From positions 1-39,375 of the forward strand of contig QPMI01000608.1 in assembly GCA_004431415.1 (NCBI GenBank): a stretch of 39,375 nt of DNA, written 5' to 3'. The notes below the pieces were generated by a model. The model did no database searches. It saw nothing but the letters and a program-made list of their open reading frames with translations, and was not told where the DNA came from. The DNA comes from Cyanophora paradoxa CCMP329. Its lineage: Eukaryota > Plantae > Glaucophyta. The stretch's first letter is position 1. Each line of letters opens with the position of its first letter. The position numbers and the translations under genes are program-made. Shown here in pieces: positions 482-22,368 of the stretch.

Positions 482-535
482 ACAAACGATTATGATTGAG
501 ATTTACATATATTTTATAGCCTTACTGAAATGTTT

Positions 536-635
536 GTGTGACAGGTGTGACAGGTCCATCCCAAGGAAAGCCCTGGTGAAAAAGTTGATTTCAAAATCGA
601 TGGGATAGACCTGTCACACCTGTCACACCTGTCAC
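536..635. repeat. Palindrome of 9-bp iterons (GTGTGACAG)n, candidate replication origin
   Basis: Arms 536-563 and 601-628 are 28-bp inverted repeats with 1 mismatch, plus a partial extra unit at 629-635. The same motif family recurs at 16790-17174. Confidence 0.9.
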
Positions 636-750
636 TATCGAAAAAGACCAAAATTTGACAAGAATACTTAAGGCTTACTTGATTGTGTATAGTGAAGACA
701 AAATGGCAAAACTCTTGATGAGATGACCATGACTGAGTTAGATAAATGCA

Positions 751-1471
751 TTAAGCATGGAGATATTGGAGCATATATCGAAATGTCACAGAGATTGATA
801 GGTTACAATATGTATGCAGCAAACCAAAGAGAAATAGATCAGTAAATTCACATAACTGTTTCAGTGTCTGAGAATGCAAACAAAAAAACAAAAGCATATT
901 TACAAAAGTTATCTGTGACTTGATTGCAAGTATAAAGCCAATTCCTTTGTATATATTTTTAGCTGCCTCAGTGGCATACTGAGACCGCTTTTTCTCAATT
1001 ATCTTATAGACCTGGGGGTCCATTGCTACTATCAGTGGCAAATAATATTTAATCGGTCTCCCTCTGGGTCTCTGCTCCTCTTTTTGGGCTTTTCTGCGAT
1101 AATAGGAACATGCTTGTTGTTCTTATACTCTCTATATTCTGGGTCCTCTCTATATCGTTTCTGCTTTGCTAGAATGTGTCTAATAGCACCCTCAGTTAAA
1201 GGCTCATCACTGGTAAACTCGATTAAACTAATTGTATCCTCCATTAATATTTGCAGAGAAAACGTTTTCACCAGAAAGAACTTCTCCTTGGATACTCCTG
1301 TTGCTCATATGTATACTCTGTGGGGTCTGCTGGCATTGACTCCACAGAAACTGTTGATCTCCTTCTCTCTCTTGCTTCTGAGGCATTATCCTCATTATCT
1401 GACATCTCAAACTCCATTGTTGTCTCACAGCATCCACTGTGGCAATTGCTCACCACATGCAGACTGAACAT
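751..1471 (-). CDS. Hypothetical viral protein(s), probably one gene split by frameshifts
   Basis: Three abutting or overlapping minus-strand ORFs (1268-1471, 1032-1271, 751-1041) with charged, protein-like composition. No recognisable motif, and the ends are uncertain. Confidence 0.4.
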
Positions 1472-1565
1472 CTCAAAACTTTCGTATTATATCCATGTCT
1501 CTAATAAAACAGAGAAAATTAAAGCCAAACTCGTCTTTTATATACTGTTGGGGCTACTCCCTTTT

Positions 1566-2244
1566 CTACTTCAGCTTTGGTGGCACCAGGTTCAATGGTT
1601 CCCTTTGGGTCTTTGTTTTCATTTCATCTACTGCCTGCTCATCGATTTGGTTCTCTTTCTTAGCAATAAACTGTTTATCTGGGACACCAGTGATACCCAT
1701 TTTGAATACTTCCTTTCGAAGCATCTCCTTTAGCTTGGCTCTCTCTTTCTTCTCAGTAACATACTGCTCCAAGGCACTTGATTTGGCTTCCAGATCTTTG
1801 AGTTTAGCAGTCATCTCATCCCATTGAGCTTTGGGAATTCGATGAATATTTTGAGTGGGAGCAGTCTTATATGTGACTTCACCAGCCATAGACTGGATTA
1901 CCTTGTCTGATTCCTTACTAAGACCTTCACCTTTGCGAGCCAGTGAAAGATCTTGCAAGCCTAAACCTTTATCATCAGCAGCACCAATAATTCGCCTGGC
2001 ACCCTCAGCAACAGCTTTCATTTTGAGGCTTCTGGTGAGATGTTGAGTTGGTCAGCAGTTGAAGCTGTGGGGCTTTGTCATCGACTGATTCCTCATAGGC
2101 AGCATTGAGGGGTCTTCTTGTTGTGAGGGCTTTATCATTCATACCATTGAATTTCATTGGTTCAGTGTTAATGGATCCATTGTTTCCACCACCTGAATAG
2201 CCAACAGCCCCAGCTGGGATCCCTATTTTTCGTTTGGGAGGCAT
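1566..2244 (-). CDS. Hypothetical basic/coiled-coil viral protein, frameshifted near 2010-2065
   Basis: ORFs 2005-2244 (starts MPPKRK, NLS-like) and 1566-2021 overlap and join if indels are allowed. TAATAAAG lies just upstream of the ATG. Confidence 0.55.
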
Positions 2245-2272
2245 TGTATCTTTATTAGAATGAGAGATAATT

Positions 2273-3022
2273 TTATAAACCGCGTTTATATCGCATCAAT
2301 TTATTGCTATGGACTTGGCTTTTCACTTCTTTGGGGGCTTCCTCTTTCTCTGGTGGTTTCAGTTCATCTTCTTTCTTTTTTGGCTTCCTGTGGAAGCGAG
2401 GAAAATCGAAATCTCCAACTAAATCGGCTTTATCGACATAGTATTTAACTTAGTAGTTTGCAGAGGACCAAACGATATGATAGGAGTGAACATACTCTTC
2501 AAACATTTGTAGAAATCCTCTTTTTTCGCATTATATTGTATTCTTCCTCTATGGCTTCAAGTTCTTTTGCGATTAGCAGCACAAAACATAATCATAATTC
2601 AGAATTACACTTGAACTTTCGAATTTCTGAGAGATAGATAATGGATATTTTCGAATGGCGCCTCTGGAATACAAGATCCATTTTTATCTCCTGAGATCGA
2701 CTTCATTTCTATCATTAAATCATCTAAAACACCACATATGGTTAAGGTTCACCCTTTTCTCTTTCTCTCTCTTAAATTTGCAATGTAAGGGATCCCATGC
2801 ACCCAGTTGAACTGTAGCAGCTTTGTCCCAAAAATGTGAAAATGAGGTAGCGGATATAATAAGTGTTGTATCAATCTTTTTGGCATCATGCAGCTGTTTC
2901 AAATAATATTTTACAGCTTCAGTCTTCCCACATCCTGATTTCCCAAGTATGAGTAGTCGGAAAGGGGGTTCTATCATTTCACCAGCCACAAATTCCTCCA
3001 GTTCAGAACTTGGTATAGGCAT
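2273..3022 (-). CDS. A32/FtsK-HerA-type genome packaging ATPase, frameshifted
   Basis: Walker A LILGKSGCGKT is in the listed ORF. In other frames downstream are Walker B (VLDDL, about 2735-2720), MDLVFQRRHSKISII (the family's RH motif), SQKF...NYDYVL and a charged tail ending at TAA 2275-2273. Total about 250 codons, adjacent to the capsid gene. Confidence 0.85.
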
Positions 3023-3081
3023 TGTTGTAGATCTTCCTAAATAAAGACAGATAAAAATAATGCTGGGAGACTGAAAATGGT

Positions 3082-4452
3082 CTATAAATTGATTCTACGA
3101 AGACCTGAACCGTCCACAATGAGGAAACTATGCATGAGAGCGCGAACATTAACATCGATTACCTTATCTGAAGGCATGTAGAGGGTGAGGAAGGAAGAAG
3201 AGGAATTTGTTAAATCAACATAACCAGACTGGGCAATATTTCGAATTGCCTTTTCTCCATCAAGGCAGAATGGGAGTCCTGAAAGGACATAGCGATCAGC
3301 AACCTTATCCATGTTAGAGCATTTGAAGGCATCAGCAATTAGCTCAGCACCTTTGAGTAGGGAAATTGGCTCAGTGGCATAAAGTCGCTGTCCATTAATT
3401 TCAACAGTGAAAGTAATATCTTTGGAGTTGGCATAGGTCTTAAGAACACTGTGGGAGCCAGTGGATTTATCAACAGTTGCATTATCACGAACTGAAACAA
3501 GCAGAGCATAAACAAGACCTGAGATTTGAGAGAGGTTAATTCGATTGGGTTGGGCATTGCCCTTGGCAGGGAAAGCACTAGCATCTACAAATCCAATATC
3601 AAGGGAGGGAATAGCCATGCCAGTAGTCTTTACTTTTTCAATAACAGTAGCGAAAAGCTCATCAGAAACATTAATAGCATGCATGTAAAGGCGAGGAGAA
3701 GTAATAGAAATAACAGGAGTTGTTGCACCAAGACTGAAAGTGGTGATGTTTTGACCAACATGGGCAAGTGTAGCATTAGCAGTATCACCAAGACCATCAT
3801 CTTCTGTCTTATCAGCAACTGTCCCACCAACAACAGGGAGAGAGCGACCACCATAGGAAGTTTCAACATAACCCTTCTCAGCATCCTTAAACCAAACAGT
3901 AACAACCATTTCACCAGATAAAGCACCAAGGGGAAGATAATGATTGAGCCAAGGCACAGGGATTTCAACGAAAAATGAGCCACCAAGTCGGTTGGTTCCA
4001 TGAGCAGGGATACCATGAACCATGCCCATTGATCGCTTCTTTTTAGCTAGTTGATCCTCCGAATAATAGACCAGGGGGAAATGAGCAAGGAAATCAGATG
4101 GAATATGGTAGGTGTAAGATCCATAGGTAATTTCAAGTCGCTGAACTAAAGCACCAACTGGGCGAGTGTATCCATTGCGAACTAGGTCAGTATCACCAGC
4201 AAACGTGATGGCTGGAAGGTCGAAAGCAAGTTCGAGTTTTCCACAGAAATTGTAGCGAGGTAGCTTGAAGGAAATGCGATTTCCAACATTATTCTCAAAA
4301 GTATTGCTGGGATTCACAACAACTAGAACTGGCTTAGACTTAGATTCGAGACCAAGCATAAGGGAGTTATCCAGGAAAAAGGCTTTCGCCTCCTCTGGGG
4401 TTGTTAGGGCTTCTTTCAGCGAAAGTCTTTGAAGAGTGGAAGTGATATCCAT
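3082..4452 (-). CDS. Double jelly-roll major capsid protein (456 aa from the likely ATG at 4452)
   Basis: Intact beta-rich ORF between the ATPase and penton genes. Motifs GNRISFKLPR..GKLELAFDLP, ALVQRLEITYG, FFVEIPVPW..YLPLGAL..EMVVTVWFK and VEINGQ parallel NCLDV-type capsid motifs. ATAAAAG precedes the ATG at 4452. Confidence 0.85.
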   Translation of the reverse strand: MDITSTLQRLSLKEALTTPEEAKAFFLDNSLMLGLESKSKPVLVVVNPSNTFENNVGNRISFKLPRYNFCGKLELAFDLPAITFAGDTDLVRNGYTRPVGALVQRLEITYGSYTYHIPSDFLAHFPLVYYSEDQLAKKKRSMGMVHGIPAHGTNRLGGSFFVEIPVPWLNHYLPLGALSGEMVVTVWFKDAEKGYVETSYGGRSLPVVGGTVADKTEDDGLGDTANATLAHVGQNITTFSLGATTPVISITSPRLYMHAINVSDELFATVIEKVKTTGMAIPSLDIGFVDASAFPAKGNAQPNRINLSQISGLVYALLVSVRDNATVDKSTGSHSVLKTYANSKDITFTVEINGQRLYATEPISLLKGAELIADAFKCSNMDKVADRYVLSGLPFCLDGEKAIRNIAQSGYVDLTNSSSSFLTLYMPSDKVIDVNVRALMHSFLIVDGSGLRRINL

Positions 4453-4505
4453 TATATTCTCTTTTATTATACTGCAACATAAAAAATCTACCAATGATCC
4501 TTAAT

Positions 4506-5513
4506 TTATGCGAAGCTTGTAATAACTGGATAGGAAGGGTGAAGCTGCGACATTCTCATCTTAAAGTATTCATAAACTGGGTCCCCAGCTGGCTCATCAC
4601 CATAGCGAATTTCAAAGGTCAGATGAACAGGTTGACCCTCGAAATCAATTGGTTCATTTACAGCATTTACAATATCAACCGAGAAAGTGGATAATCCAAC
4701 CTTTTTATTATAATATTTGTAAAGTGGGTGAGCCTCTGTTGAATTATAAACTACATGCTCTCCATAGTCTTTATCAGGGACCACTATTTTATGGAAGTAA
4801 CCAGTCAGGAGACCATCCCCACATTGCACCAGATCACCCAGCTCCTTTACCCTCACAAACAAAACACTGTCCCTTGTCTTTTCAGGCTCAAAAGAAGATA
4901 TAATGCCATTCACTCGACCACCAGTAAAAATTCCATCAGTGAGAGCATCATAGACCTGTGATTGGATTGGGAGTTACCATATCTTCCAGGATCAAGACCC
5001 AGCAGTCTAGCTGAACTCAACAGCTTTTGGATTGTTTGTTGGCTTGGGTTCACAGCTACTGAGAAAGCCAAGTAAAATGGTACTGCTGAGTGGAATATAA
5101 TTCGTTTCAGTGATTCATCCCATTTGCAGCGAATGGATGGTTGGGGATTCTGCCTTCGAATTTAGAGTTAATTACATTCACCAGTTGCTGGTGGCTTTGG
5201 ATGGGGTGTTTCGACTTATAATGAATTGTTTCCATTGTTCATAGTCAGCAGCTGGGCGAACTGTTGGAATTCCTGAGCTTCCAGCTCCAGGAGTTTGTTC
5301 AGAATAATAAATGCTAAATGCATTGTCAACTGTCACATCTCCTGCTTTGGTTTCACCACTCACCATAGGGATACTGTTATAAAATTCGGCTGAGACCAGT
5401 CTCACAGCCCTCACATTCTCATAACTACTGGGGAGTCTAGCCACAAAGCTTGAAGTGGGACCATCACCAGAGATTGTATTAAATGAGCTAACCTCGATGT
5501 AATCCACAGGCAT
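4506..5513 (-). CDS. Minor capsid (penton-like, single jelly-roll) protein 1, frameshifted
   Basis: N-terminal SSFVARLPSSYENVRAVRLVSAEFYNS, middle SARLLGL (in an unlisted frame, about 5030-5000) and C-terminal LFVRVKEL...FSVDIVNAVNEPIDFEGQPVHLTFEI align by eye with the intact paralogue at 5543-6475. At least three indels are needed. Confidence 0.78.
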
Positions 5514-5542
5514 TCTTCTTTTATCTATATTCATATATTAAA

Positions 5543-6475
5543 ATGAACCGGCTCGTTAATATTGATAGCAGGGATAGAAGCCAAGGACAAAATGAAAACT
5601 CTTACAGGGTCACCCTCACAACTCCAGTAGAGAGACCAAGGGAATGCAGGGTTCTATATGCAGAGATTCCAAACAGCATCTATAACAGTGTGGGAACTGA
5701 TCATCTAACAGTTCAGTTTAATTACCAAGATGGTTCATATAACCAAGTGATCACACAACAAGTGTATCCCCTTCCCAGTGGCTACATCAATCAGGGTCAT
5801 TTTGGGGTAACACACCCTTATAATTATGGGCTGAACTATTCAAGCTTCCAAACCATTGCAGATAAAACTGTGTTTTTTGAGTTCAAGATATTCTACAATC
5901 CAACTACCTATAAAGTGGAGTTTTACAGTAACCATGAGTTTCGTTTTATTGCAAGCAACCAGAGAATAGGAAAGCTTTTGGGTGTAAGTTCTACTGAATA
6001 CACCACTGGGTATTATAGCACTCCTCCTGTTGGTGGATCTCCATATCGACCTGAGAACCTTTTAAAGTATGATGGTAAACCTATTACACCTGATCACCCA
6101 GCATGGGGAATCACCTTCTCAGGACCCAGACTCTCCTCAAAGCCCTTGCAGTATTATTTTGACAGCAGGAAGATGTCTGATATGAATGCTGAGCAGTATC
6201 TGTACATGCATATTAAAGAGCTAGCCCCCTTTGCCAGCAGACACAATATAATTCCGAAATCGCAACCACATAACCAGGGGGCTATCCTTAGATTACAATT
6301 GAGTAAGGATATAGGTGGCTATGTTTACCATAGTGGTGAGCATGCAGAATTCATTCAGATAAATGACAGAAACCTGGTGATAAGGGAACTCACAGTTGAG
6401 TTTAAAGATTACTTTGGTGAACTGATTGATATGAATGGAATCGATAATTCTTTTCAGTTGGAGTTTATCGAATAA
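5543..6475 (+). CDS. Minor capsid (penton-like) protein 2, 310 aa
   Basis: LVNIDSRDR start, VLYAEIPNSIYN, IGKLLG, YLYMHIKEL and ELTVEFKDYFGELIDMNGIDNSFQLEF are typical of minor capsid proteins of PLVs and NCLDVs. Confidence 0.85.
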   Translation: MNRLVNIDSRDRSQGQNENSYRVTLTTPVERPRECRVLYAEIPNSIYNSVGTDHLTVQFNYQDGSYNQVITQQVYPLPSGYINQGHFGVTHPYNYGLNYSSFQTIADKTVFFEFKIFYNPTTYKVEFYSNHEFRFIASNQRIGKLLGVSSTEYTTGYYSTPPVGGSPYRPENLLKYDGKPITPDHPAWGITFSGPRLSSKPLQYYFDSRKMSDMNAEQYLYMHIKELAPFASRHNIIPKSQPHNQGAILRLQLSKDIGGYVYHSGEHAEFIQINDRNLVIRELTVEFKDYFGELIDMNGIDNSFQLEFIE

Positions 6476-8021
6476 AGGCACCTGTAAAGTCAACTCTCAT
6501 TGTGGGAGCATTCACATACACAAGGGGATAAATGCGAATATATTTAATTCTGAGAGAAAAACCTATGTAAAAAGCATCCTTGATGCTGAGAGGAAATCCA
6601 CTCAATAGAGCCACATCACCTGAGTTGTGAGCATTGTTAATGTTCTCACAGACATATATTTTGTTTTGCCCATCTGATCGAATAAAAGACCAGTTGATCC
6701 CATCAGTGGATGTTGCCACATTGAAAGTCTTAATAAAAGCATTGGTGTCCCCTGATCCATAGGCAATCACAGAAGAGAGTTCAAAAGTATATGGGAAAGC
6801 AACTTGAAGGTATTCAGTGGGGGTTTCCCATATCTGCTCAGGAGCATAGGCTCCAGCTTCCCAGCCAAATGCTGAAGGTCTAGCCATGAAAGGCTCTTTA
6901 CCAGTCACAGAGGATGAGGCAGTGAAGGCATCATCTGCAAGCTGATACCAATTAGCATCCAAAGGTGGTGATGTAGTGAGAGTGGATGAAATGTAAGCCT
7001 TTGAAGGGTTCTTTAGTTCATAGTTTGCTACTAGTAGGCTGCAAAGCTTATTGATCATATCATTGTTTGCTGCAATGTAGGTTTCTGTGAAAGAAAGCAT
7101 ATCTGGGATTTTAGAAGTGTCATCAAGGGAGCTAACTATATGGTTTGGAAGAGGGACCGATAGCCTATAGTATCTCCCATAATCCTGATCATAGTTGTAG
7201 GGTAAAAGCTCCTCCATTTTATCAAGGGCAGAAAGCTCACTTGCAGCCATGAGCATGTTAATCAATGGGCTTCCATCTGTTGAGGCAATCCATGAGAGAA
7301 TGCCCCAGCTGTTTACAGTCTCATAAGCATAACCCACATAATCAGACTCTAAATGTGGGTCCACCTCACCACAAGAGATGCTTATTACTATAATGTCATC
7401 ATCATCACTGTAAATCTTCTTTGCATGGCTGTAACCACACACACTGGGATTATTGTTTCCCGAAATGGCACCATCAATGAGACAGACATATACTCCCCTA
7501 TTGAAATCAACAATGCTTACAGGAGAGAAATATGTAGGAGCAGCAGAAGTAGCCCTAGCAGCAATCTTACAAGGCATAAAGTTGTAATTGTTGTCATTTG
7601 TGATAAATATTGGTTTCATATTCTGAGTATCAAAGGATGTGATCACAATGTCCTTAAGGGAATCCTGTATTAGTGATTCACCAGTAACTGAATTGATTGC
7701 AGTCTCCAAGGGTCCCACATCATACTTTGTGTTAAATAGGGCATTTTCAATGATATTTCGAGGATTTGCGAAAATCAAGGGCAGTTGAGTTAGGTAAATA
7801 TTGTGTAAATCGTTTGCTGTCAGTTTAGGTTCACCTGGTTTATCAGGATGCCTGATGTTTAACCCAATAGCAATGATCCCACCAGTGGAAGTTCCACTCA
7901 CAAGATCCACAAGATCGATTATTCTCCTGCCAGTTCGATTTTCGATTTCTTTGAGCAGCCTGGTTATGATAATGCCCCTTGCACCCCCGCCAGAAAGACT
8001 TAAAACGACCTTGAGAGGCAT
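6465..8021 (-). CDS. Patatin-like phospholipase fused to a C-terminal discoidin (F5/8 type C) domain, 518 aa
   Basis: GGGARG oxyanion motif, GTSTG nucleophile elbow, SAAPTYF and DGA catalytic Asp. The C-terminal FTASSS..W..EYLQV..KTFNVATSTDGINW..KYIRIYP..MRVDF fits the discoidin pattern. Confidence 0.92.
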   Translation of the reverse strand: MPLKVVLSLSGGGARGIIITRLLKEIENRTGRRIIDLVDLVSGTSTGGIIAIGLNIRHPDKPGEPKLTANDLHNIYLTQLPLIFANPRNIIENALFNTKYDVGPLETAINSVTGESLIQDSLKDIVITSFDTQNMKPIFITNDNNYNFMPCKIAARATSAAPTYFSPVSIVDFNRGVYVCLIDGAISGNNNPSVCGYSHAKKIYSDDDDIIVISISCGEVDPHLESDYVGYAYETVNSWGILSWIASTDGSPLINMLMAASELSALDKMEELLPYNYDQDYGRYYRLSVPLPNHIVSSLDDTSKIPDMLSFTETYIAANNDMINKLCSLLVANYELKNPSKAYISSTLTTSPPLDANWYQLADDAFTASSSVTGKEPFMARPSAFGWEAGAYAPEQIWETPTEYLQVAFPYTFELSSVIAYGSGDTNAFIKTFNVATSTDGINWSFIRSDGQNKIYVCENINNAHNSGDVALLSGFPLSIKDAFYIGFSLRIKYIRIYPLVYVNAPTMRVDFTGAFIR

Positions 8022-8064
8022 CTTTTACTTATCAGGAATTTTATAAATCCCTATAGTAAAAGCC
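8022..8064. promoter_or_regulatory. Compact bidirectional promoter/initiator with inverted AGTAAAAG motifs
   Basis: CTTTTACT (8022-8029) and AGTAAAAG (8055-8062) are exact reverse complements, each 0-2 nt from a divergent ATG. Related (A/G)TAAAAG motifs precede other viral starts. Confidence 0.6.
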
Positions 8065-11000
8065 ATGAGCTTCAATTACCCACCCAATCTAGAAACCATT
8101 CAAGATGATAATGCAAGCAGCACCAAGCATGTGAACTTTGATAATATTAAAGTAAAGGGTTCAGTTTCAATTGACCACAGCTCTGATAATTCATCAAAGA
8201 CTCAATCAAGGGAGCATGCTTTATCTGTGAATCAAACCGATCCAGATAAAGAGGATGTCAGTGTTGCTTTTAGTTTGGGTAATGTGAAAGCAAACCAAGT
8301 GGCAGAGATCAAAGCCACCAGAAGGAGACCTAGGAAACTGAAAACCAGTGGCACTCACCCAGATATACCTTCCAGGTTCGATAGTGGTCGATTGATTTTC
8401 AATGTTCAAGATGAGCAGGGCAAACAGAACACAGCTTTACGAATTTACAATGAGGGCAGCACTGCAAAAGCTGAGGTCCCCCAAGTATTGCAAGTGGGTC
8501 CCATTGCCAATACAAATCAGGTCTCCTACACAAATGATGTCTACCCCAAGGATATTACATATGACTTTGCAAGAAATGAGCCTTTTGGGTTCTTTACTCC
8601 AAAAGATGTCCATCAAAAAAAGCCATCAATTACAATCAACAGTAGCCCCAGTCAACCAGTAGCAATCCATTTGCATCCTGATTTAGTCGAAATGGATAGG
8701 CACCTTTTGCCTTTGTATAGCAATGTGAAAGACCTTGGAATTCGAACCAGGCAATGGCGAAATATCCATGGCAGTAATGTGTATGCAAATGGTGAGAAGC
8801 TTGTTAGTGAGAAAACCCTAAGAGAAATCATTGAGCATTATGGTCCCAATGGACCTACTGTCCCATTCCCTATTCCATTTCCCAATGGACCACCCGATTT
8901 AACACCAAAGAAGCAGCCTGGAAGAGAATACACAGCAACTGAAGATGTAGCCTTTGGGCAGCATATTGTTAGTTGGGAGCAAGTTCGCAATAAACCTATA
9001 ATTGAACCCAGAAAGCAAATAGATGAGCAGTATTTACCTCCTGAAGTCGATATATTAGAGCTTGATGAATATCAATTCGTTCCAGATGAGGAAGAATATT
9101 TACCAGATGGTTTTGACCCACAAGAATATGAATATGATCAGTTTGACCCCAATGAGGAGGAAATATTGCCCGATGGCTTAGATCCACAAGAGTTTGAGTA
9201 TGAGCAGAACTATGAACCTGATGAGGAGTATTTACCAGATGGTCATGATCCACCAGCTGTTGACTATGAGCAACCTTATGAACCCCATGAGGAATTGTTA
9301 CCAGATGGATTTCGACCTGAGATCTGGGAGTTCTTTCCTGATTATGAACAAATTAATAATAAACCTGCAAAGTATCCCCCAGAGGATCACAATCATGATT
9401 GGGATGAGATCTTAGGCAAACCTCAGAAGTATCCACCAGAGGATCACAGGCATGATTGGGGTGAAATTGATGGGATACCTGCTGAGTTTCCACCAAGCAA
9501 ACATGAACACACTTGGGATGAGATCAATGACCAACCAGAATTCGCAAAGGTGGAGCCTCTTGATAACTTGGGGGTTTCTCTTTACCAGACTTGTAATGTC
9601 CCTGAAAGGATTTTTTTGAACGAACACTATGTTCATGTGAATGGGACACTTGCAAATTCAGCTATGAGAGGACCACTTCATATTAGGACATTACCAGGCT
9701 CTTTTGAAACCCCACCTGAACCAGGAGCAACCATACCAAATATCTTTGTGTCAAGCTACATGGAGGCTGACATTCCCACAGATACATTCAGAGTCCCAAC
9801 AGACCCAGCAACCTACCAAAATTACAACGCTGCTATACAGGTTCATGTAGCAGATGTAAGCAGTTTAGATGGCTCAAGACCAATGATAGTATTCAGCAGA
9901 GATAAATATTCTTACATTCCCATAGTGGGAACTGCAAATGATAATTATGGGAGGGCAGAGCTTGCATGGATTAAAACAGATTATGGTGGGGTTCTGGAAG
10001 CCAATCAGAGGATGGCTGCAAAAAACATACACAATGAAAATATTTCGAGAGTGGTCACAGAGGATTACCTTACTGCTGTTGTTCTTGTGAATATAGTCAC
10101 CCTTGCTATGCTTGCAAATTATGTAACGAAAAATGAACTTGCTCTTGAATTATCAAAGTATCTTCTCAAAACAGGTGGGACAATCACAGGGGACCTTACT
10201 GTTACCAGTAACCTTTACACAAGTAACCTTTATGCAAGCAATATAACGGTCGATTTTCTTACTGTTACATCTAATGCAAACCTCCCACATCATCCAACTT
10301 CAAATGTTGTGGAAGGGTGGATCAGAAACCATACTCACACCAAAGACCAAATTTTAGACTTTGATCACACACATGCCTGGTCAAATATTGTGGACAAACC
10401 ATTGACTTTTCCCCCAGATGATCACACCCATGCCTGGTCAAATATTTTCGACAGGCCCCTAACCTTCCCTCCTGATATTCACACTCATGATTATACCCAG
10501 ATCACCAACTGCAATCACAGACATCCTTGGAATGAAATAGATGAACAACCAGTGTTTGCACAATTAAATGCAATCGGAAATGTTTTTAATGGAGTCACAC
10601 TTTACCAATCGAGTAATACACCTGAAAGATTGTATTTGAATGATCATTATGTTAGTCTCAATGGGACTTTTACAGGTCAAACAGGCACTCCAATGGAGGG
10701 AACTCTTGCAGTAAGATTACCCAGGGATCCAATCGTAAATGGAGTTTATGATGGTGATTTTAATGTAGGAGTAAATGATACTTTCCCCAGTATCTATGTT
10801 ACAAATTATCACCCAGGTGAAACAGGACAAGTAGCCGATTTTTCAGCAGCTATTCAAATAAACGTTACAGATCAAAGCGCATATGATGGAGCAAGACCTA
10901 AAATAGTATTCACAAGGGAGAAAGTTGTAAACTATCTTCCCGTTGCGGGACAACCCACAGATGATCACGGTAAATGTGAGATGGCGTGGATAAAAACAAC

Positions 11001-13530
11001 ATCAGGTGGCGCCTTAGAAGTCAATCAGAGGATGGCGGCGAAAAACTTACACAATACAACCCTTTCAGGTGTCGTTACAGATGATTACCTAACCAATAAA
11101 GGATATCTTACGACCGCGGATTTAAGCAGTTACACAACGGATGCAGAATTAACAACGGCTCTTGCGAATTATTTACCTCTTACAGGTGGGACAGTTAATG
11201 GAACTGTAAACGCTACTAGTCTACAAATTGGTGGAAACACAATTCCAAAAGGATATGATTTCGATCAATTAGATGTAGTATCAACAGATAGAAGCGCAAA
11301 TAATTGGAATTTGAATTGGTCACCAAGAACAGGACAAACAGGATGTTATACTACACCAGCAAATGATGAAGATTGCAGCGGTTGTTGGATGCGTTGGACA
11401 ATTCCAGAAGGTATGAAATCATTTTATATTCAGCATATGCCTTGGTATAATGGCAGATATTTTGATATCTATGGTCAGACTCTCAATAACAATCAGCATT
11501 TCTTAAAACGTGTAAACGATTATCAAGGAATACAGTCAGTAAATCATGATGGGACAAATAATACTATCTTGTTTGTATCAATTAATTGCGAGTTTTACAA
11601 GTATATTTATGTTCAAGGGCGAATAGGTCGCATTCATCTTACAGGGGTTTTCGGTTGGAGCAGACAGAGGGCAACAGATAATGATGTTGGTTTAGTTCAT
11701 TATGATAATATTGCTTTCAAACCAGATGTAGGCAAATATACAGAGTTTGATGTTGTGAGTGGTTACAATAGCGCAGGTGTTGAATTTGTAGGGTCTTGGG
11801 ACACGAATTGGAAACCTACATCAGATAACCCGGTTGCAGGATTTTACAGCATTGTAACTGATGATGAAACCAGCGGTGACTATATGCAGATCTTAGTTCC
11901 AACAGGAATGAAAACTTGTCACGTCCAATATTTCTGTTGGACGAATTGTAGATATTTTGATATAGGAGGTTATCGAAACAATAGATGGAATCACATTATG
12001 AGAGTGAATACTTATCAAAATGCAGGAAATACATATGCAGATTCACTTTGGCATGAAGGTTTAACATGGACTTCATTCTTTTGTGGGAATTTCTCATATA
12101 TTAGATTTGTTGCGAGAAAAGGGCGTTGTCATATTGGAATGCTTGGATGGACAAAAGAGGTAGGAAGAACAGCACCAGCAAATGGTATGATAAGTTGGGA
12201 TAATGTTTATAGCAAACCGTCATTTTATTCAGCCGCAGACCTTCCACAAACAGCGACATGGCCAACAAATACATGGTTAAAATCAACCGACACTGTTCCG
12301 CGAATTTGGTTTGGAAATGGTGATTGCACATATATTCGAGGTTATGGAAATGGTGCTGGTGTTTCAATTGAATTCAGAGACTCAGCAGATGGAGCAATAT
12401 TAAAGTCTTATAACAATGGTAACTTTTGGGTGAAAAACACTATTACAGCACCCACTATTAATGCTACTACCAAACTCCAAATAAATGGTAATGATATCCC
12501 AAAGTTTCACACAGCAGATAAAACAGTAGGAGGTATTGAATTTAATAGATGTTCTTATAACGATTGGGAGTGGGCGTGGAGTTCAGCATGGGATCCATCT
12601 TATAATTATGGTTCTTACGTTTATAATAAGCAATCGGATGATCAAACTTCTACCGCTTGGATTGACTTCGATATTCCAGAAGGATATCACACAGGAACAG
12701 CGTTTTTAACTTATTTACCTTGGGTTAGCTCACGACTTTTTGAAATTTGGGGAGTGAATCGACAAGGAAATGAAGTTTTTATAACATCAGTGAATAGTTA
12801 TCAACCATACTCCACATCTCCTGAAGGTAACCACAGTGGTTTAAATAATGTTCCTATACATCTTGGTAATCGATTCCTCACAATTCGGATTAGACCAAAG
12901 ATTGGAAGAGTTCACATTATGGGTATAAGTTACATGAAAATTTGGGTAGGAAATAGTTATGGTGGTCACACCGGCTATATTCATTGGAATAATGTTTATA
13001 GTAAACCAAATATCTTAACAGGAGCTGTGGAAACTTGGTTTAATTCCAGTGATGGATATAATCGAATTCATTTCGGTAACAATGGTTCTACATATTTGAA
13101 AGGAAGGGGAGATTATCCAATAAGATTTCGAAATGAATTAGATTCTGATATTTGTTGGATCGATCATAACGGGCGGATGTGGATAAACAATTATTTAACA
13201 CAAGGAAGTGACAGAAGATACAAAACAGATATTAAAAAGATAACCGGCGCTCTTTCAGCAATCGAAAAATTAGAAGGAGTGAGTTTTAAACGAATTGGGA
13301 GTGAAAAAGACGGAACAAAATTAGGTTTAATTGCGCAAGATGTAGAAAAGGTAATACCAGAAATTGTAAGTGTCACAAAAGAAGATGGTTACCTTTCTCT
13401 CGAATACACGGGTTTAATTCCAGTTCTCATAGAAGCCGTTAAAGAGTTATCTAAGAAATGCAAAGATTTAACACAAACATGTGAAAATCTCCAAAGTCAA
13501 ATAGATCAAATTAAAAATGTCACAGTATAA
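8065..13530 (+). CDS. Giant fibre / receptor-binding protein with C-terminal intramolecular chaperone (Peptidase_S74), 1821 aa
   Basis: HxHxW..I..KP phage-tail repeats, two YL..TGGT..G.(L/V) shaft motifs and three repeated beta-rich domains. GSDRRYKTDIKKI..AL..IEKLEGVSF..GLIAQDVEKVIPEIV..LEY.GLIPVLIEAVKEL plus a terminal coiled coil. Confidence 0.9.
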   Translation: MSFNYPPNLETIQDDNASSTKHVNFDNIKVKGSVSIDHSSDNSSKTQSREHALSVNQTDPDKEDVSVAFSLGNVKANQVAEIKATRRRPRKLKTSGTHPDIPSRFDSGRLIFNVQDEQGKQNTALRIYNEGSTAKAEVPQVLQVGPIANTNQVSYTNDVYPKDITYDFARNEPFGFFTPKDVHQKKPSITINSSPSQPVAIHLHPDLVEMDRHLLPLYSNVKDLGIRTRQWRNIHGSNVYANGEKLVSEKTLREIIEHYGPNGPTVPFPIPFPNGPPDLTPKKQPGREYTATEDVAFGQHIVSWEQVRNKPIIEPRKQIDEQYLPPEVDILELDEYQFVPDEEEYLPDGFDPQEYEYDQFDPNEEEILPDGLDPQEFEYEQNYEPDEEYLPDGHDPPAVDYEQPYEPHEELLPDGFRPEIWEFFPDYEQINNKPAKYPPEDHNHDWDEILGKPQKYPPEDHRHDWGEIDGIPAEFPPSKHEHTWDEINDQPEFAKVEPLDNLGVSLYQTCNVPERIFLNEHYVHVNGTLANSAMRGPLHIRTLPGSFETPPEPGATIPNIFVSSYMEADIPTDTFRVPTDPATYQNYNAAIQVHVADVSSLDGSRPMIVFSRDKYSYIPIVGTANDNYGRAELAWIKTDYGGVLEANQRMAAKNIHNENISRVVTEDYLTAVVLVNIVTLAMLANYVTKNELALELSKYLLKTGGTITGDLTVTSNLYTSNLYASNITVDFLTVTSNANLPHHPTSNVVEGWIRNHTHTKDQILDFDHTHAWSNIVDKPLTFPPDDHTHAWSNIFDRPLTFPPDIHTHDYTQITNCNHRHPWNEIDEQPVFAQLNAIGNVFNGVTLYQSSNTPERLYLNDHYVSLNGTFTGQTGTPMEGTLAVRLPRDPIVNGVYDGDFNVGVNDTFPSIYVTNYHPGETGQVADFSAAIQINVTDQSAYDGARPKIVFTREKVVNYLPVAGQPTDDHGKCEMAWIKTTSGGALEVNQRMAAKNLHNTTLSGVVTDDYLTNKGYLTTADLSSYTTDAELTTALANYLPLTGGTVNGTVNATSLQIGGNTIPKGYDFDQLDVVSTDRSANNWNLNWSPRTGQTGCYTTPANDEDCSGCWMRWTIPEGMKSFYIQHMPWYNGRYFDIYGQTLNNNQHFLKRVNDYQGIQSVNHDGTNNTILFVSINCEFYKYIYVQGRIGRIHLTGVFGWSRQRATDNDVGLVHYDNIAFKPDVGKYTEFDVVSGYNSAGVEFVGSWDTNWKPTSDNPVAGFYSIVTDDETSGDYMQILVPTGMKTCHVQYFCWTNCRYFDIGGYRNNRWNHIMRVNTYQNAGNTYADSLWHEGLTWTSFFCGNFSYIRFVARKGRCHIGMLGWTKEVGRTAPANGMISWDNVYSKPSFYSAADLPQTATWPTNTWLKSTDTVPRIWFGNGDCTYIRGYGNGAGVSIEFRDSADGAILKSYNNGNFWVKNTITAPTINATTKLQINGNDIPKFHTADKTVGGIEFNRCSYNDWEWAWSSAWDPSYNYGSYVYNKQSDDQTSTAWIDFDIPEGYHTGTAFLTYLPWVSSRLFEIWGVNRQGNEVFITSVNSYQPYSTSPEGNHSGLNNVPIHLGNRFLTIRIRPKIGRVHIMGISYMKIWVGNSYGGHTGYIHWNNVYSKPNILTGAVETWFNSSDGYNRIHFGNNGSTYLKGRGDYPIRFRNELDSDICWIDHNGRMWINNYLTQGSDRRYKTDIKKITGALSAIEKLEGVSFKRIGSEKDGTKLGLIAQDVEKVIPEIVSVTKEDGYLSLEYTGLIPVLIEAVKELSKKCKDLTQTCENLQSQIDQIKNVTV

Positions 13531-13533
13531 TAA

Positions 13534-13842
13534 ATGGCGACCTATCCACTTGGTGGATCTCCTTCTACTACTTCTGAGCCTGTTGCTCTTGCATTCGATA
13601 CTATCAAACTTGTAGCCGCACTACAAAATGTCGAAAAAACGATTCAGCAAACTAACAAGCTCTCACCAGTTGTAAATGAGTATAAAAACCTCTTGGTTAA
13701 TGTCCTTGCTCAAGCTGCATATGGTGACCCTGTTGCTAAATACAATGAGTGTGATAACAACATTAAAGCAATGACATCCAACCTGCAAGTTCTTTCAACT
13801 GTTTACCAATCCCTTGGATCGAATTTAATCACTTTGGCTTGA
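13534..13842 (+). CDS. Hypothetical helical protein, 102 aa
   Basis: Intact ORF starting 3 nt after the fibre stop (TAATAAATG), with amphipathic composition. Confidence 0.7.
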   Translation: MATYPLGGSPSTTSEPVALAFDTIKLVAALQNVEKTIQQTNKLSPVVNEYKNLLVNVLAQAAYGDPVAKYNECDNNIKAMTSNLQVLSTVYQSLGSNLITLA

Positions 13843-13881
13843 TGGTAGTTTATTTTTCTTTCCTTCTTAGTAAAAGAAGCA

Positions 13882-14736
13882 ATGGGTGAATATAATCGAG
13901 TTCAACTGCCTATATATTCCCTTGGATCCCCTGCAATGCATTTTCGCCAGCATGAAGTAAATGATGAGGTTCGTGGTTTAGAATCCACAGAGAGACCCAA
14001 CTCCAATGGCAACTCCTTTGATAAAAATTCGATTATTCGAGTTAAAGAGCTGAGAGCTGATAAGAATTCTGGTGTGGTTAAAACAACTCGACTTCTTGTC
14101 ACAAATGCTAACTTCTTTCAGCCTACTAATGGAGGTCCTGATGCTTACAGTGTTGATCTGAAAGCCCTTGATTATGATAAAAACACTGCTGCTGTAACTG
14201 TGAGATCAGGAGGAGCATTTATTGGTGGTGGCTGCAGAGTTTCAGGTCAGCTATCTTCATCTGTTTCCTACAATGATGTCCCAGATACTCTCGAACAAAA
14301 TGTGGAGAACCCACAACGAATTCGTTTCTACACACCTGTTGCACAGCAACCTTTTTTGCATTTCTATGTTGCATCCTCTGTAACTCTTGAGAATTCGGAA
14401 TTAGTTTCCATTACAGGAACTGATCGAGTAAGAAGAAATATTCCTCTTCCCACTGCAATGCTTTCCATGTGTAGAGCCAATAATAATCAACCAGGACACA
14501 ACTACTTATTCTTTGTTCAAGCTTCGAACCATTTTGGCAGAGGATATTGTGTTTATAACAATTTGACATTTACCTATGATCTGTTTGTCACTGAGGTTGG
14601 AGTATACAATACTATGATTATGGGACTGAGAACAGATATAGCAGCTGTATCAGCACTTCGTGGGGTAAATGTTGCTGATATATTCACAACAGGATTTTAC
14701 CAAGAATTAGATGTAATTGATGACCCAACCCCATAA
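13882..14736 (+). CDS. Putative structural / fibre-like protein, paralogue A (284 aa)
   Basis: Intact ORF preceded by AGTAAAAG. Shares GL.STE, ELR.DKN.G.VKTT.LLVTNANF and SGGA.IG.G.RV.G with the next gene. Confidence 0.75.
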   Translation: MGEYNRVQLPIYSLGSPAMHFRQHEVNDEVRGLESTERPNSNGNSFDKNSIIRVKELRADKNSGVVKTTRLLVTNANFFQPTNGGPDAYSVDLKALDYDKNTAAVTVRSGGAFIGGGCRVSGQLSSSVSYNDVPDTLEQNVENPQRIRFYTPVAQQPFLHFYVASSVTLENSELVSITGTDRVRRNIPLPTAMLSMCRANNNQPGHNYLFFVQASNHFGRGYCVYNNLTFTYDLFVTEVGVYNTMIMGLRTDIAAVSALRGVNVADIFTTGFYQELDVIDDPTP

Positions 14737-14759
14737 AAGATATATCCCTTTAATGTAAA

Positions 14760-15593
14760 ATGGCTGAGCAACCCCCACTTGAACGAATTATTACACCTCA
14801 GCTATCATTAGCTGCACCAGCAAACCATGTTCTGCAGCATGCTACTTTTGATGATGTTGAGGGACTGCAGTCCACAGAGGTCCAACCTACAATGAATACA
14901 TTTGGTTCCACCCACAAGCTGAGATTACAGGAACTCAGATGTGATAAAAATAATGGAATAGTTAAGACAACTAAGCTACTTGTGACAAATGCAAACTTTT
15001 CTGCTCATTATGGAGACCCAGATAGCTATGGAGATCCTCTTTCTACTTATTCTTTTGAATCTAGGTCGGGAGCTATTAACTGCAAATCGGGGGGAGCTTA
15101 TATTGGTGATGGTCTTAGGGTTGGTGGGGCTGTTGGAGCGCCTCTATTTGTGAATGATCAACCCAATCCCATTGATCCCAACACAAGAATTCGAACCTAT
15201 GTCCCCAGCATGAATGCCCCCTATATAATAAAAATATTCCCAATTGTTGTGAATGAACAAACAGCAGTAGTAGACTCTCTTGTTGAGATTGGTGACCACT
15301 ACAAGGTTGTTGTGGATATTCCACCAGATGTATATGCTCTTTGTCAAGTAGAGGGTGGAACTCCTAATTTTGCTGTTGTGATCACCCCATATGATAATTT
15401 TGGAATTGCTTATCATGGAGTCAATTTCGGTTTAGAAGATTACCAGTTCTTAGTGAGAGCCACCAAGTTTGGTATCTACAAGTGTGTATTATATGCTGAG
15501 AGAACCGATTTTATTGCAAGGCAGAATACCTATGCTGAATACTATGGCACAAATCGATATTTCCCCATTTTTGGGCAGGATACTGCTCCATAA
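14760..15593 (+). CDS. Putative structural / fibre-like protein, paralogue B (277 aa)
   Basis: Intact ORF and tandem paralogue of 13882-14736, with a conserved N-terminal half and a diverged C-terminal half. Confidence 0.75.
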   Translation: MAEQPPLERIITPQLSLAAPANHVLQHATFDDVEGLQSTEVQPTMNTFGSTHKLRLQELRCDKNNGIVKTTKLLVTNANFSAHYGDPDSYGDPLSTYSFESRSGAINCKSGGAYIGDGLRVGGAVGAPLFVNDQPNPIDPNTRIRTYVPSMNAPYIIKIFPIVVNEQTAVVDSLVEIGDHYKVVVDIPPDVYALCQVEGGTPNFAVVITPYDNFGIAYHGVNFGLEDYQFLVRATKFGIYKCVLYAERTDFIARQNTYAEYYGTNRYFPIFGQDTAP

Positions 15594-15615
15594 GAATGTT
15601 GATTATATATAGAGT

Positions 15616-15888
15616 ATGGATAGTAAAACAAAAAAGTTTATTGATGCTGCTATGACAGTTCATGGTAAAGATAAATTCGATTACAGTGAGACACATTACA
15701 TCAAAGCTCAAGAGAAAGTATCTGTTAGATGTTTGCAGTGTAACAAGGTGATCCTTACCTATCCCTTTAATCATGTGAAGGGATCAGGTTGTAGGGACTG
15801 TAATAAAAGAAAAAGTCAAGCACATAGGAAAAGGGCTACTTCATCAATTAGAGTAGAGTATAGGGATATTTGCATTAGGTTTGACTAG
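15616..15888 (+). CDS. Small Zn-ribbon protein (DUF723-like), 90 aa
   Basis: FI..A..VHG..FDYS...Y......V.V.C..C......P.NH..G.GC..C pattern, as in repeats associated with viral homing endonucleases. No nuclease domain follows. Confidence 0.7.
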   Translation: MDSKTKKFIDAAMTVHGKDKFDYSETHYIKAQEKVSVRCLQCNKVILTYPFNHVKGSGCRDCNKRKSQAHRKRATSSIRVEYRDICIRFD

Positions 15889-15911
15889 TTAATTTTTCTA
15901 AGGTATTCTTA

Positions 15912-16310
15912 ATGGAGACTAAACACAGAGGCTTTCATGTTATGCTTGATTACAAGGCTAAATCAGCTATAGCAACAGGTTATGAGCATGTGAGCTTCCT
16001 AGGTAATTGGATTATGGGAACCCTTGAACAAGCAATATTGAGACAAGGTATTAGGATTGTTCATAAACACTGTGAGATATTTGATGGCAAACTATCACCT
16101 CCTGGTTTTGCATTGGTTCTGCTATTAGATGAAAGCCATTGTACAGCTCATTGTTATTCCAATGAAGGCATGTTAGCAATTGATATATTCAGTTGTGGTA
16201 AAGAAGCTCAGCATAAAACACAATCAGTAGCAGATGAGATCGATAAAACAATGAATTTCCTCACATTTGAGAAGACTGAGAGACATAAACATGATAGATT
16301 CCCGTTTTGA
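15912..16310 (+). CDS. speD: Prokaryotic-type S-adenosylmethionine decarboxylase proenzyme homologue, 132 aa
   Basis: G.HVMLD at the N-terminus, PPGFALVLLLDESHCTAHCY (E-S-H pyruvoyl self-cleavage site) and AIDIFSCG. Confidence 0.88.
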   Translation: METKHRGFHVMLDYKAKSAIATGYEHVSFLGNWIMGTLEQAILRQGIRIVHKHCEIFDGKLSPPGFALVLLLDESHCTAHCYSNEGMLAIDIFSCGKEAQHKTQSVADEIDKTMNFLTFEKTERHKHDRFPF

Positions 16311-16713
16311 TGGGTTTCTATAATGATAAACAGGGTAATTTACCTTTTTTATTACAATGGCAATCGTTAAAAAAGGATATAATATATCCTTTCCTACAAT
16401 AGCTTTCTACAATGATTTTCTTTCTACAGTAGCTTTTGTTACAATAGAATTCTACTGTATGATGTAGCCAAAATATGAATGCATCCTAAACCTACAAATG
16501 TAAGATTTCGAATACTATTCGATTTCATTACAGTAAAACTCAACATTCCCCTTGATTCCCCCTATTATAATTAAAGTGGACTCAAGGTTGACTCATATTA
16601 ATCGTAAAAGTAGTAAAAGTATATGGATTTTGTTACGAATTCAATGGGAGGGTTGACTAAGTGGGTTGAGTTGACTCAAATTTCACAGGAAATAACAATG
16701 AATCAGAGTATAA

Positions 16714-17182
16714 ATGCATTTTTTGAATCAACTACACCAACTAACACTGAGATTTTACCAATATATGAGGTCCTTACTGAATATGGTTTGTGTGACAGGT
16801 GTGACAGGTCTATCCCAAACTTTTCTATAGCATAAAAATGAACTCTCAAAAGTTTGGGATGGACCTGTCACACCTGTCACACTCGATTATTTCATTTGTT
16901 TATTCAAGTAGAATTACATAGATAAACTTCTTACTTATTGTTACTGAGTTTTTCATTATAAAAGAGATCCTTACTAAATATGGTTTGTGTGACAGGTGTG
17001 ACAGGATGCATTTTGTGAATCAACTACACCAACTAACACTGAGATTTTAACAATATATGAGGTCCTTACTGAATATGGTATGTGTGACAGGTGTGACAGG
17101 TCTATCCCAAACTTTTCTATAACATAAAAATGAACTATCAAAAGTTTGGGATAGACCTGTCACACCTGTCACACCCAATTAT
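16714..17182. repeat. Two ~170-bp direct repeats (period 292 bp), each ending in a 35-bp iteron palindrome, plus a half unit
   Basis: 16714-16882 matches 17006-17174. Stems are 16790-16824/16848-16882 (1 mismatch) and 17082-17116/17140-17174 (perfect), with 23-nt loops. A half unit lies at 16968-17005. Confidence 0.95.
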
Positions 17183-17425
17183 TTCAAAAATCCTAAGGGT
17201 CCCCCCTTAGAATCATTAAAACATGATAAAAACATATAAGTTTCATGTATAATTACGATTGGATTCAATAAGAGATCGATTTGTTTTATTTAACAAATGA
17301 ATCATTTATGGATCTTAATCGAGTTTAGCGATATATTTCCGATTAAATGAATTAAATTTAATTAAATTTAATCGAGAAAGTACATGAATATAATATCGAT
17401 TAAATCAATTAACAAACAGACCAAT

Positions 17426-17710
17426 CACACATAGTAAAATGCGGAGTTTTAACCAGAGGCAAGATCTAATTGAGATTCAGTTATATTATTCGGAAATATA
17501 TACAGATTATCGATAGACTCAGTAAGACTAATCGGAAAATAAGAGAAATTTACGATAAAATATCGAAAAGAATACAAAATAAACGAAATAAATGAATATT
17601 CGATAAGATATACACAGATTAACGATTGATTGAAATAGAATATACGAGATATATCAACAAAATCAATTAAGATAAGCCGAGGGTTAAAACTCCGCATTTT
17701 ACTATGTGTG
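17426..17710. repeat. Perfect 29-bp inverted repeat marking the element terminus
   Basis: CACACATAGTAAAATGCGGAGTTTTAACC (17426-17454) and its exact reverse complement (17682-17710), with a 227-bp AT-rich spacer. Host-like DNA begins at 17711. Confidence 0.95.
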
Positions 17711-18210
17711 TAGGATGCGCATCAAATTAAATTTGATCGCGAGCAGCGCTGCGAGTGAACGTTCAATCGGGGGCGCACATGTAGAAGCGAATGACCGCGT
17801 GATGGCCGCGAGCAGCGATATCGCCCAAAACTTTCTCGACGGGACCCCAGGCAAAGGAGTTCGGGCCAATGAAGACATCTGAGAGCGCGACATAGCTGAA
17901 CTCCAATGCCTGCGCAGCGGTCGCCGTTGGGCGAGAATTACGATCGAGGCTCTTCGGAAGCAAATTTAAAACGCACCCAGTCAGTCCCGGCAGCGTTCAA
18001 CTGCGGGTAGAAGGAAGTCCAGCCTGCAAAAAAGTTTTGATTTCGAATTTCACGTGCAGCGGCGATGGGAGCGCGGCTGCAATGCGACGCGAACGCACCT
18101 TTGAGCGGATTCGGGCCGCTGACGGGCTTGTATGTGAGGGGACCGCCAAAACAGGCGGCCGCGGCCGTGAAGAAGATCACAGCCGTGAGGAGGGAGCCGG
18201 AGCGGGCCAT
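17711..18210 (-). CDS. 5' exons of a host secreted DUF4832 / glycoside-hydrolase-like gene, interrupted by the viral insertion
   Basis: Splicing two GT-AG introns gives signal peptide MARSGSLLTAVIFFTAAAACFG, then NPLKG|WTSFYPQLNAAGTDW|ALEFSYVALSDVFIGPNSFAWGPVEKVLGDIAARGHHAVIRFY. This resembles the N-terminus of bacterial DUF4832 proteins. A third intron opens near 17778 and runs into the viral terminus. Confidence 0.68.
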
Positions 18211-18855
18211 TTCGAGAAAAGCTTCTTAGAAACTTGGAGAATTTCAAGATTCTCAGGGCGCGCAGTGCTGGCGCCGGAGACTTGCAATTGGCGGGAAATG
18301 GCTCGCCTTCGAGGCGACTGCGGGCGATTCGCGCATTAGAAACGCTGCGAATACACTTTTCCAGGCGCCACTGAAGCCCCCGGAGCGCCACGCGGGCGCC
18401 CGGCGAGCGCACCTTGCCGGCCTCGGAACGATTTGAAAGTGAGGACTGCGCGGGCCGTGGCGGGAGTCAGGCAGCAGGGGGGGAGGACCTGGAGGGGAGA
18501 GGAGACCAAAAGTAAAGCGCCCGACCCGGCCCGCGACCCCGCAGGGGGGGAGGGGAGAAACGCCAAGGGAAGAAATAGGCGGCATTTGCATGCATGCAAG
18601 GGGAGATATAGGGCTCGAGGAAATCAGATGAATTCAAGACTCGCGAGGGGATTCGAAGGATACGAATTAAGTGCTCCGAGTATAGACAAGCCAAGATCCG
18701 ATGATCCAGCTTTACTGGGGAATGAAGAAGAGATCGAAGGGCCCGCTGAGAATTAGCTATAGACAAGCCAAGATCCAGCTTGAAGAGGAGCTCGAGTAAA
18801 TCAGCGATCGCCCCGGCTCGCAAGAACCGAATTCAAGCACACGAGAGCTAGCGGG

Positions 18856-22257: not shown

Positions 22258-22368
22258 TGCAGCTGCTCTCCAGGGACAGCCGCGGGGTCGTGACGCCAAG
22301 CTCGGCGCTGGTCGCTAGCCCGTGGTCGGCGCGGTCGCTTGTTCCGTGCTCTTTCGTGTACCCACAAA

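Follow-up and report, generated by a model that had tools for sequence, protein, structure and literature searches.

Introduction

Why should nearly every CpG that survives in a virus-like insertion be preceded by T or followed by A? The question is raised by contig QPMI01000608.1 of the glaucophyte Cyanophora paradoxa CCMP329 (assembly GCA_004431415.1), the whole 39,375 nt of which was analyzed and is referred to here as the window. Its first ~17,710 nt are AT-rich (33–42% GC, about 39%), compared to ~70% GC for the remainder, and this part (1..17710) appears from its sequence to come from a multi-copy endogenous Polinton-like virus (Preplasmiviricota), of which it would be the right part, with the left end beyond the window. 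An earlier note, made by inspecting this element from 5543 to 16310, had claimed that CpGs are scarce there and that those remaining are almost all TCG or CGA, and had attributed this to long-term erosion under a sequence-selective host methylation or defence system acting on the viral lineage.

The genome of C. paradoxa has 32% methylated CG, both DNMT1 and DNMT3, and methylated repeats and viral genes (PMC12344493), and flanking bases are known to influence CG methylation in other eukaryotes. In Amoebidium, CGC/GCG sites are methylated at 70% compared to 20% (PMC11244446), the activity of DNMT1 spans almost 100-fold over NNCGNN sites (PMC7381644), and DNMT3 favours RCGY over YCGR (as cited in PMC4810514). 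No report of TCG/CGA-sparing CpG loss in a Polinton-like virus was found in the literature searched, which included the available text of PMC12220804, PMC10120064, PMC12210455 and bioRxiv 10.64898/2026.10.09.758095 and covered few subscription journals.

Results

CpG flank bias in the element

Outside a module of the fibre gene (10861..13440, see below), 164 of the 182 CpGs in the core of the element have a 5′ T or a 3′ A. Within core coding sequence the rule is followed by 110 of 121 CpGs (90.9%), compared to 60.8 ± 2.2% after synonymous shuffling within each gene (0 of 2000 shuffles reached the observed value), and pooled synonymous shuffles, with an expectation of about 60%, also never reached the observed 90–91% (0 of 1000). 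The tetramer bias thus persists in the codon-preserving control that the earlier note had proposed. It is CG-specific, as the same flank statistic is 0.63 for both GpC and CC, and it extends left to base 1 (73 of 82 CpGs in 1–5542) and right to 17710 (17 of 19 in 17241–17710), with unannotated or non-coding stretches following the rule as well (16/18, 13/16, 6/6, and 17/19). The observed/expected (o/e) ratio is 0.32 for CG and 0.95 for GpC, while TG and CA, at 1.27 each, are the highest among the six dinucleotides compared. The flanking host DNA had been described as CpG-rich, and its CpG o/e is indeed 0.94–1.35 per kb from 18001 onward.

Most of the earlier hand counts were reproduced, namely 12 of 13 CpGs in the patatin gene, the continuation of the pattern in 13534–14736 (18 of 19), and an expectation of roughly half from base composition (computed as ~0.51). 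For 8065–10500 the pattern held with a slightly different count, 19 of 21 rather than 18 of 20. The CpG density over 5543–16310, given as under 1 per 100 nt, is in fact 1.35 per 100 nt, and the rule holds over this interval as a bias and not as a near-universal feature, with only 100 of 145 CpGs (69%) following it, because 10861–13440 is exempt. This exempt module had been overlooked, as had the signs of selection on Arg codons and the additional exclusion of GTGC, GTAC, and GGCC.

The fibre module as an internal control

In 10861–13440, 32 of 70 CpGs fit the rule compared to 52.9 ± 4.8% in shuffles, so that no filter is seen, and the unprotected CpGs of the fibre gene cluster at 10863–13437. 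Silent sites in the module retain 34 of 136 VCGB (V, not T; B, not A), close to the baseline of 0.235. The module boundaries were drawn after seeing the data. However, with the fibre gene left unsplit, 5543–16310 still shows the bias (69.2% versus 58.8 ± 2.3%, 0 of 2000 shuffles), and the result is therefore independent of the after-the-fact boundary. An exact-match contig covers 11589–11958 at a depth of 45–129, other contigs join this region differently, and the module is at least partly low-copy. It likely arrived too recently for erosion, and an uneroded module argues against decay of this copy after its insertion. The claim of long-term, lineage-level erosion is further supported in that other copies lack two of the unprotected CpGs of this copy.

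Shape of the filter at silent sites

The filter was resolved at silent positions, at which the C-to-T change is free on one strand only. The numbers of CpGs kept were 26 of 107 for TCGA, 16 of 220 for TCGB, 18 of 229 for VCGA, and 10 of 465 for VCGB, with a baseline of 618 of 1462 for C followed by a base other than G. Relative to that baseline the survival odds are 0.03 with neither flank, 0.11–0.12 with one, and 0.44 with both, such that a 5′ T multiplies CpG survival 3.7-fold and a 3′ A 4.0-fold (interaction p 0.92). TCGA itself is also reduced, by about twofold (p 0.0002). The reverse-complement classes TCGB and VCGA are equal (p 0.86), and it makes no difference which strand is mutable. 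The filter is therefore graded and looks like one that acts on duplex DNA, resembling an enzyme preference. A single-flank, single-strand mutator is rejected by the multiplicative flanks and by the equality of TCGB and VCGA, and a fixed 4-bp site as the cause of the CpG pattern is rejected by the graded loss. CCGG is depleted like ACGT in the element (1 versus 22 expected), and the best-kept one-flank class is GCGA/TCGC.

Route of loss and selection at Arg codons

The both-strand counts give a CG deficit of 791 and an excess of 488 each for TG and CA, and a TpG/CpA excess fits deamination. A CG-specific deficit with such an excess is the pattern of methylation-driven depletion. At fourfold-degenerate sites the pyrimidine share is 0.61 before G and 0.61 before other bases, meaning that the lost C appears as T.

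The codons CGC, CGT, and CGG for Arg have no silent removal by deamination. After T they occur 20 times compared to 9.5 expected, and after other bases only once compared to 11.5 expected (0 of 2000 shuffles in each case). In the capsid gene, 16 of the 18 Arg residues use CGN, all 16 in TCG or CGA, and all 18 are conserved in the related capsid P0001; the Arg codons follow T in 10 of 10 cases (p 0.0095 on the gene's own codon use). Since neutral deamination alone would not tie a fixed Arg codon to the preceding base, we infer that selection acts besides deamination, directed against methylation itself or against essential sites that are hypermutable.

The variant spectrum by context was too thin to use, with 40 of 1721 variant rows listed. 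Among these 40, four fall on the 60 bases of "forbidden" words (0.14 expected), and at each of the four sites most or all of the other depth reads a different letter. Such sites are either unique to this copy or errors of assembly, and the virus family is therefore cleaner than the window. No directional C-to-T decay over the whole inserted copy was found.

Exclusion of non-CG words

Three further words are nearly absent from the element, and all three (GTGC, GTAC, and GGCC) are normal in the host flank. On the + strand of 1–17710, GTGC occurs once and GCAC 33 times (p 4e-9, the best among 118 pairs). The GTGC:GCAC ratio is 0:17 in minus-strand genes and 1:16 in plus-strand genes, so that this asymmetric word is excluded in one orientation whatever the gene direction. 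In strand-aware shuffles, + strand GTGC is 0 versus 10.6 expected in plus-strand genes and 0 versus 5.8 in minus-strand genes (0 of 300), with GCAC at expectation (13 versus 14.7 and 15 versus 13.5, respectively). GTAC is found twice in core coding DNA compared to 24.1 expected (4 versus ~35 across 1–17710), and GGCC once compared to 17.8 expected (2 versus ~17.5 across 1–17710), accompanied by an excess of GACC/GGTC (68 versus 52 expected in core coding DNA). Loss of GGCC with a gain of GGTC/GACC would be expected from cytosine methylation at GGCC by a methyltransferase and subsequent deamination. Near-complete palindrome loss, as would be expected of type II restriction-site avoidance, is seen for GGCC and GTAC, with no enzyme seen, and not for the graded CpG set.

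A single rule, a + strand without GTRC (R, purine), accounts for both GTAC and GTGC. It extends into the fibre module, where GTAC is 0 versus 6.8 expected and GTGC 1 versus 4.3, the one GTGC reading differently in other copies. Because the module also lacks GTAC, the GTRC exclusion is likely either faster than the CpG filter or common to the donor of the module, and it is a different constraint from the CpG filter. The loss of GTGC/GTAC and GGCC likely reflects a pressure of its own and points to further enzymes on the virus side. From the sequence, three candidates can be put forward for GTRC. It might be read by an orientation-dependent restriction enzyme, of the kind that requires head-to-head sites (PMC6286503), or it might be a priming or nicking signal in the element's own replication. 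The third candidate would be a strand-specific nickase of a helper giant virus. Chloroviruses have nickases, and strand-asymmetric avoidance of type III sites is exemplified by phage T7 and EcoP15.

Identity, extent, and copy number of the element

The Polinton-like virus reading is proposed because the element combines an AT-rich multi-copy insertion, a weak A32-like ATPase, a capsid paralog, a patatin-F5/8 fusion, and an S74 fibre (Table 1). A Pfam scan of 13 open reading frames (ORFs) of the window matched the ATPase weakly, the patatin-F5/8 fusion, the S74 chaperone of the fibre, and AdoMet decarboxylase. The arrangement expected of a Polinton-like virus, a packaging ATPase and a minor capsid gene adjoining the capsid gene, is present in weak form. 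Endogenous Polinton-like viruses of glaucophytes (PMC12220804) are alike in their AT-rich insertion, capsid, A32 ATPase, S74 fibre, and the patatin-discoidin fusion reported for them; the terms "CpG" and "dinucleotide" have no occurrence in the available text of that paper, which describes no filter at the level of words.

Table 1. Features of the element and its host flank in the 39,375-nt window
Feature	Position	Strand	Evidence or remark
Core, left part: TCG/CGA-sparing CpG filter; + strand without GTGC	1..10860	.	
Variable fibre module, no CpG filter; at least partly low-copy	10861..13440	+	
Right part of the core plus the non-coding terminus: CpG filter back	13441..17710	.	
A32-like packaging ATPase, 5′ part; frame stops early in this copy	2720..3022	-	Pfam Pox_A32 E 0.0011, under curated cut-off
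Probable major capsid protein, 456 aa	3082..4452	-	60% identity to P0001; Atlas look-alikes
Probable first minor capsid protein, fragmented in this copy	4506..5534	-	Open frames 5178-5534, 4506-4973
Probable minor capsid protein (penton)	5543..6475	+	Atlas look-alikes including Preplasmiviricota clusters, Sputnik V18/19
Patatin phospholipase fused to F5/8 type C (discoidin) domain	6465..8021	-	Pfam
Fibre protein, 1821 aa, C-terminal peptidase S74 chaperone	8065..13530	+	Pfam E 1e-15
S-adenosylmethionine decarboxylase homolog	15912..16310	+	Pfam AdoMet_dc E 5e-11
48-nt inverted repeat at high-copy end	17426-17473 / 17663-17710	.	Repeat search, depth drop
GC-rich host DNA at low copy, with neither CpG depletion nor a detected flank filter	17711..39375	.	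Composition, depth, codon control

The capsid has one close relative, P0001, which is recorded as EP00741_Cyanophora_paradoxa. Its Atlas look-alikes are large-DNA-virus capsids (score 0.97–0.98, of low recognition value), it has no Pfam match and no PDB sequence match, and its predicted structure is unusable (predicted local distance difference test score, pLDDT, 31). A capsid profile search gave eight proteins without usable DNA, and no DNA of the element's relatives was present among the viral and metagenome contigs searched. The assignment of 4506–5534 as the first minor capsid protein is probable from an N-terminal likeness to the adjoining gene, for which the Atlas look-alike score is again 0.97–0.98 and of low recognition value. 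The matches of the patatin gene are only 29–38% identical and are uninformative, the C-terminal part of the fibre matches phage tail-fibre genes at 28–41% identity, and a search for relatives of ORF 13882 found none. Several genes are fragmented in this copy, through assembly error or decay. Viral AdoMet decarboxylase homologs are mostly polyamine enzymes, some with an altered substrate (PMC9992855), and it is a speculation that the homolog encoded here could reduce S-adenosylmethionine and so weaken methylation.

The summed contig depth is in the thousands up to ~17710–17795 and drops to 28–290 over 17796–18935. Across the element, contigs from four DNA-type runs add up to depths in the thousands and carry many variants. 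Single element contigs have depths of 2032–2295 compared to 28–125 for flank contigs, a ratio that suggests tens of copies of the element, depth itself not being a copy number. A host-depth contig begins 29 nt inside the element's right end, and the bridging rule needs 31 nt. Between 56 and 63% of the words of 5600–10400 are present in 14 DNA-type runs from one organism; 14% are also found in run X16, labelled as another organism (B), which is no evidence on host range. No RNA run is among the matches listed, and this carries no information about expression.

The inverted repeat at 17426..17710 is likely part of the element's terminus. The surrounding AT-rich, high-copy end (17241–17710) is enriched in CpG rather than depleted (TCGA 7 versus 1 expected), and it contains just two unprotected CpGs, at the equivalent site in each arm of the 48-nt repeat. 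Nearby is a 181-nt direct repeat (16714–16894 and 17006–17186, 96% identical), and a TGTGACAGG-type repeat occurs in inverted pairs at 535–635, 16789–16882, 16986–17005, and 17081–17174. The same type of motif forms an inverted pair at 8344–8468 of phage contig L001, immediately downstream of a primase gene, and from their sequence such pairs are a possible replication origin. A tblastn search with the L001 primase against 1–700 of the window gave nothing significant, and the 20-nt repeat motif matched two unrelated GC-rich contigs, the CpG filter being missing in both. In the host flank, a gene lies in an inverted duplication (25629–28268 and 29031–31672, arms 82–99% complementary); it is subtilisin-like by eye, and Pfam gave no confirmation on three ORF pieces.

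Discussion

CG methylation by the host, with TCG and CGA as disfavoured flanks, is the explanation of the CpG pattern that we consider somewhat probable from the sequence. Such methylation would have acted on integrated copies over many cycles, marking TCG/CGA sites least. Methylated sites at silent positions would have been lost by C-to-T deamination, and those at unchangeable positions would have been removed by selection, whether for escape from silencing or through the load of hypermutable sites; such selection would be why Arg CGC and CGT persist almost only after a T-ending codon. The low-copy fibre module would have joined too late to be eroded, and the process would be a slow one because the module keeps VCGB at baseline though it shares the GTAC exclusion. 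The equal retention of TCGB (16/220) and VCGA (18/229) provides the both-strand symmetry of depletion by DNMT1/DNMT3-type enzymes. The earlier note's appeal to the host agrees with CG methylation marking repeats and viral genes in C. paradoxa (PMC12344493), while the choice of the host over a virus-side enzyme stays a proposal.

In C. paradoxa, Acanthamoeba, and Amoebidium, viral insertions and repeat DNA are marked by repressive CG methylation (PMC12344493, PMC11244446, PMC12210455), as is proposed for the element, with no counter-adaptation in the viral sequence seen in the available text of those papers. The flank axes differ, in that Amoebidium favours CGC/GCG (PMC11244446) and the axis in the element is 5′ T / 3′ A, with GCGA/TCGC the best-kept one-flank class. 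The mammalian enzymes show comparable graded two-flank effects, TCGA belonging to the YCGR class and ACGT to the RCGY class (PMC7381644, PMC4810514). The pattern of the element is not an exact match to any of these precedents.

Several observations weigh against host methylation as the cause. The DNMT3 YCGR rule fits only in part, as a 5′ C gives no protection in the element (CCGG, CCGT, and CCGC are depleted), and no flank preference was found in the passages searched of the main and supplement text of the C. paradoxa methylome paper, figures aside (PMC12344493). The fourfold-site result is baseline-dependent, as the pyrimidine share is 0.51 before A and 0.69 before C/T, and transitions among copies are not skewed overall toward C-to-T (run X1: C>T 143, G>A 191, T>C 190, A>G 190). 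The codon-controlled host flank has no filter (44 blocks of 90 nt; TCGA o/e 1.15, neither-flank 0.99), this control being crude and of low power on genes that may be unmethylated. Finally, the non-CG words are excluded in the element but not in the host flank, and virus-side enzymes may explain the CpG pattern too. The raw TCGA excess of the host flank (o/e 2.96) was rejected as evidence since it vanishes under the crude codon control, and it is no evidence either way.

The alternative that survives best, though we think it unlikely, is that the CpG pattern was made by a cytosine methyltransferase or a restriction-modification set on the virus side, encoded either in the element's left part or by a helper giant virus. 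Giant viruses encode methyltransferases and some have full restriction-modification systems (PMC7253447), the fibre module lacking the CpG filter may have come from a virus of the same host, and the losses of GGCC and GTAC together with the GACC/GGTC gain, all against a normal host flank, are of the kind expected. The CpG effect, however, is graded and multiplicative over all ten NCGN classes, unlike a fixed site, the motifs described in PMC7253447 are palindromic N4C/N6A ones, and no methyltransferase appeared in the Pfam scan of 13 ORFs, the element's left part being beyond the window. Somewhat less likely again is uniform methylation followed by a step that spares TCG/CGA, such as T:G mismatch repair, active demethylation, or a methyl-CpG reader. 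This fits every sequence result equally well, including the duplex symmetry and the Arg effect, and most C. paradoxa repeats are effectively methylated (Sarre et al.), but it requires an extra context-dependent enzyme.

Hypermutation of integrated copies after insertion, similar to repeat-induced point mutation, is improbable: the TpG/CpA excess and the multi-copy family would suit it, but the fibre module in the same copy is uneroded, transitions are balanced among copies, long frames are intact with conserved Arg codons obeying the rule, and there is no strand-specific single flank. An artefact of codon, codon-pair, or amino-acid composition is scarcely credible: codon structure raises the expectation from 0.51 to ~0.60 and appears to explain the ~3-fold raw TCGA excess of the host, but the synonymous shuffles, both pooled and within genes, and the non-coding stretches refute it and the bias is missing from part of the same fibre gene.

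The word exclusions have known parallels. Phage avoidance of type I/III sites (PMC6286503) is alike in that an asymmetric word would be excluded on one strand regardless of gene direction and its palindromic member lost altogether; here the virus is eukaryotic, and the survey, in its available text, found no systematic case even in phages. Pandoraviruses, also eukaryotic DNA viruses, have likewise lost a 4-mer, AGCT, almost completely and without an explanation (PMC7253447), but the words differ, and the element has one exclusion that is polar by strand and, on top of this, a graded CpG filter.

Methylation by the host with TCG/CGA disfavoured predicts that 5-methylcytosine will be lowest at TCGA, with a change of about 4-fold per flank. 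The CpG pattern also provides a date for exchanges of modules in the virus, and the one-strand exclusion of GTGC points to an unknown enzyme or replication signal. A bolder reading, which we offer tentatively and regard as doubtful, is that the virus family hides its unavoidable CpGs, even those of essential Arg codons, in a TCG/CGA blind spot of the host methyltransferase, and that its genome records a second, orientation-dependent defence that reads GTRC (type III-like or nicking), a type of defence familiar from bacteria and phages but here operating between an alga and its virus. Methylation of inserted viruses by protist hosts is established, and if this reading is true, counter-adaptation in the virus sequence would mean that the elements pass through a silenced state and escape from it.

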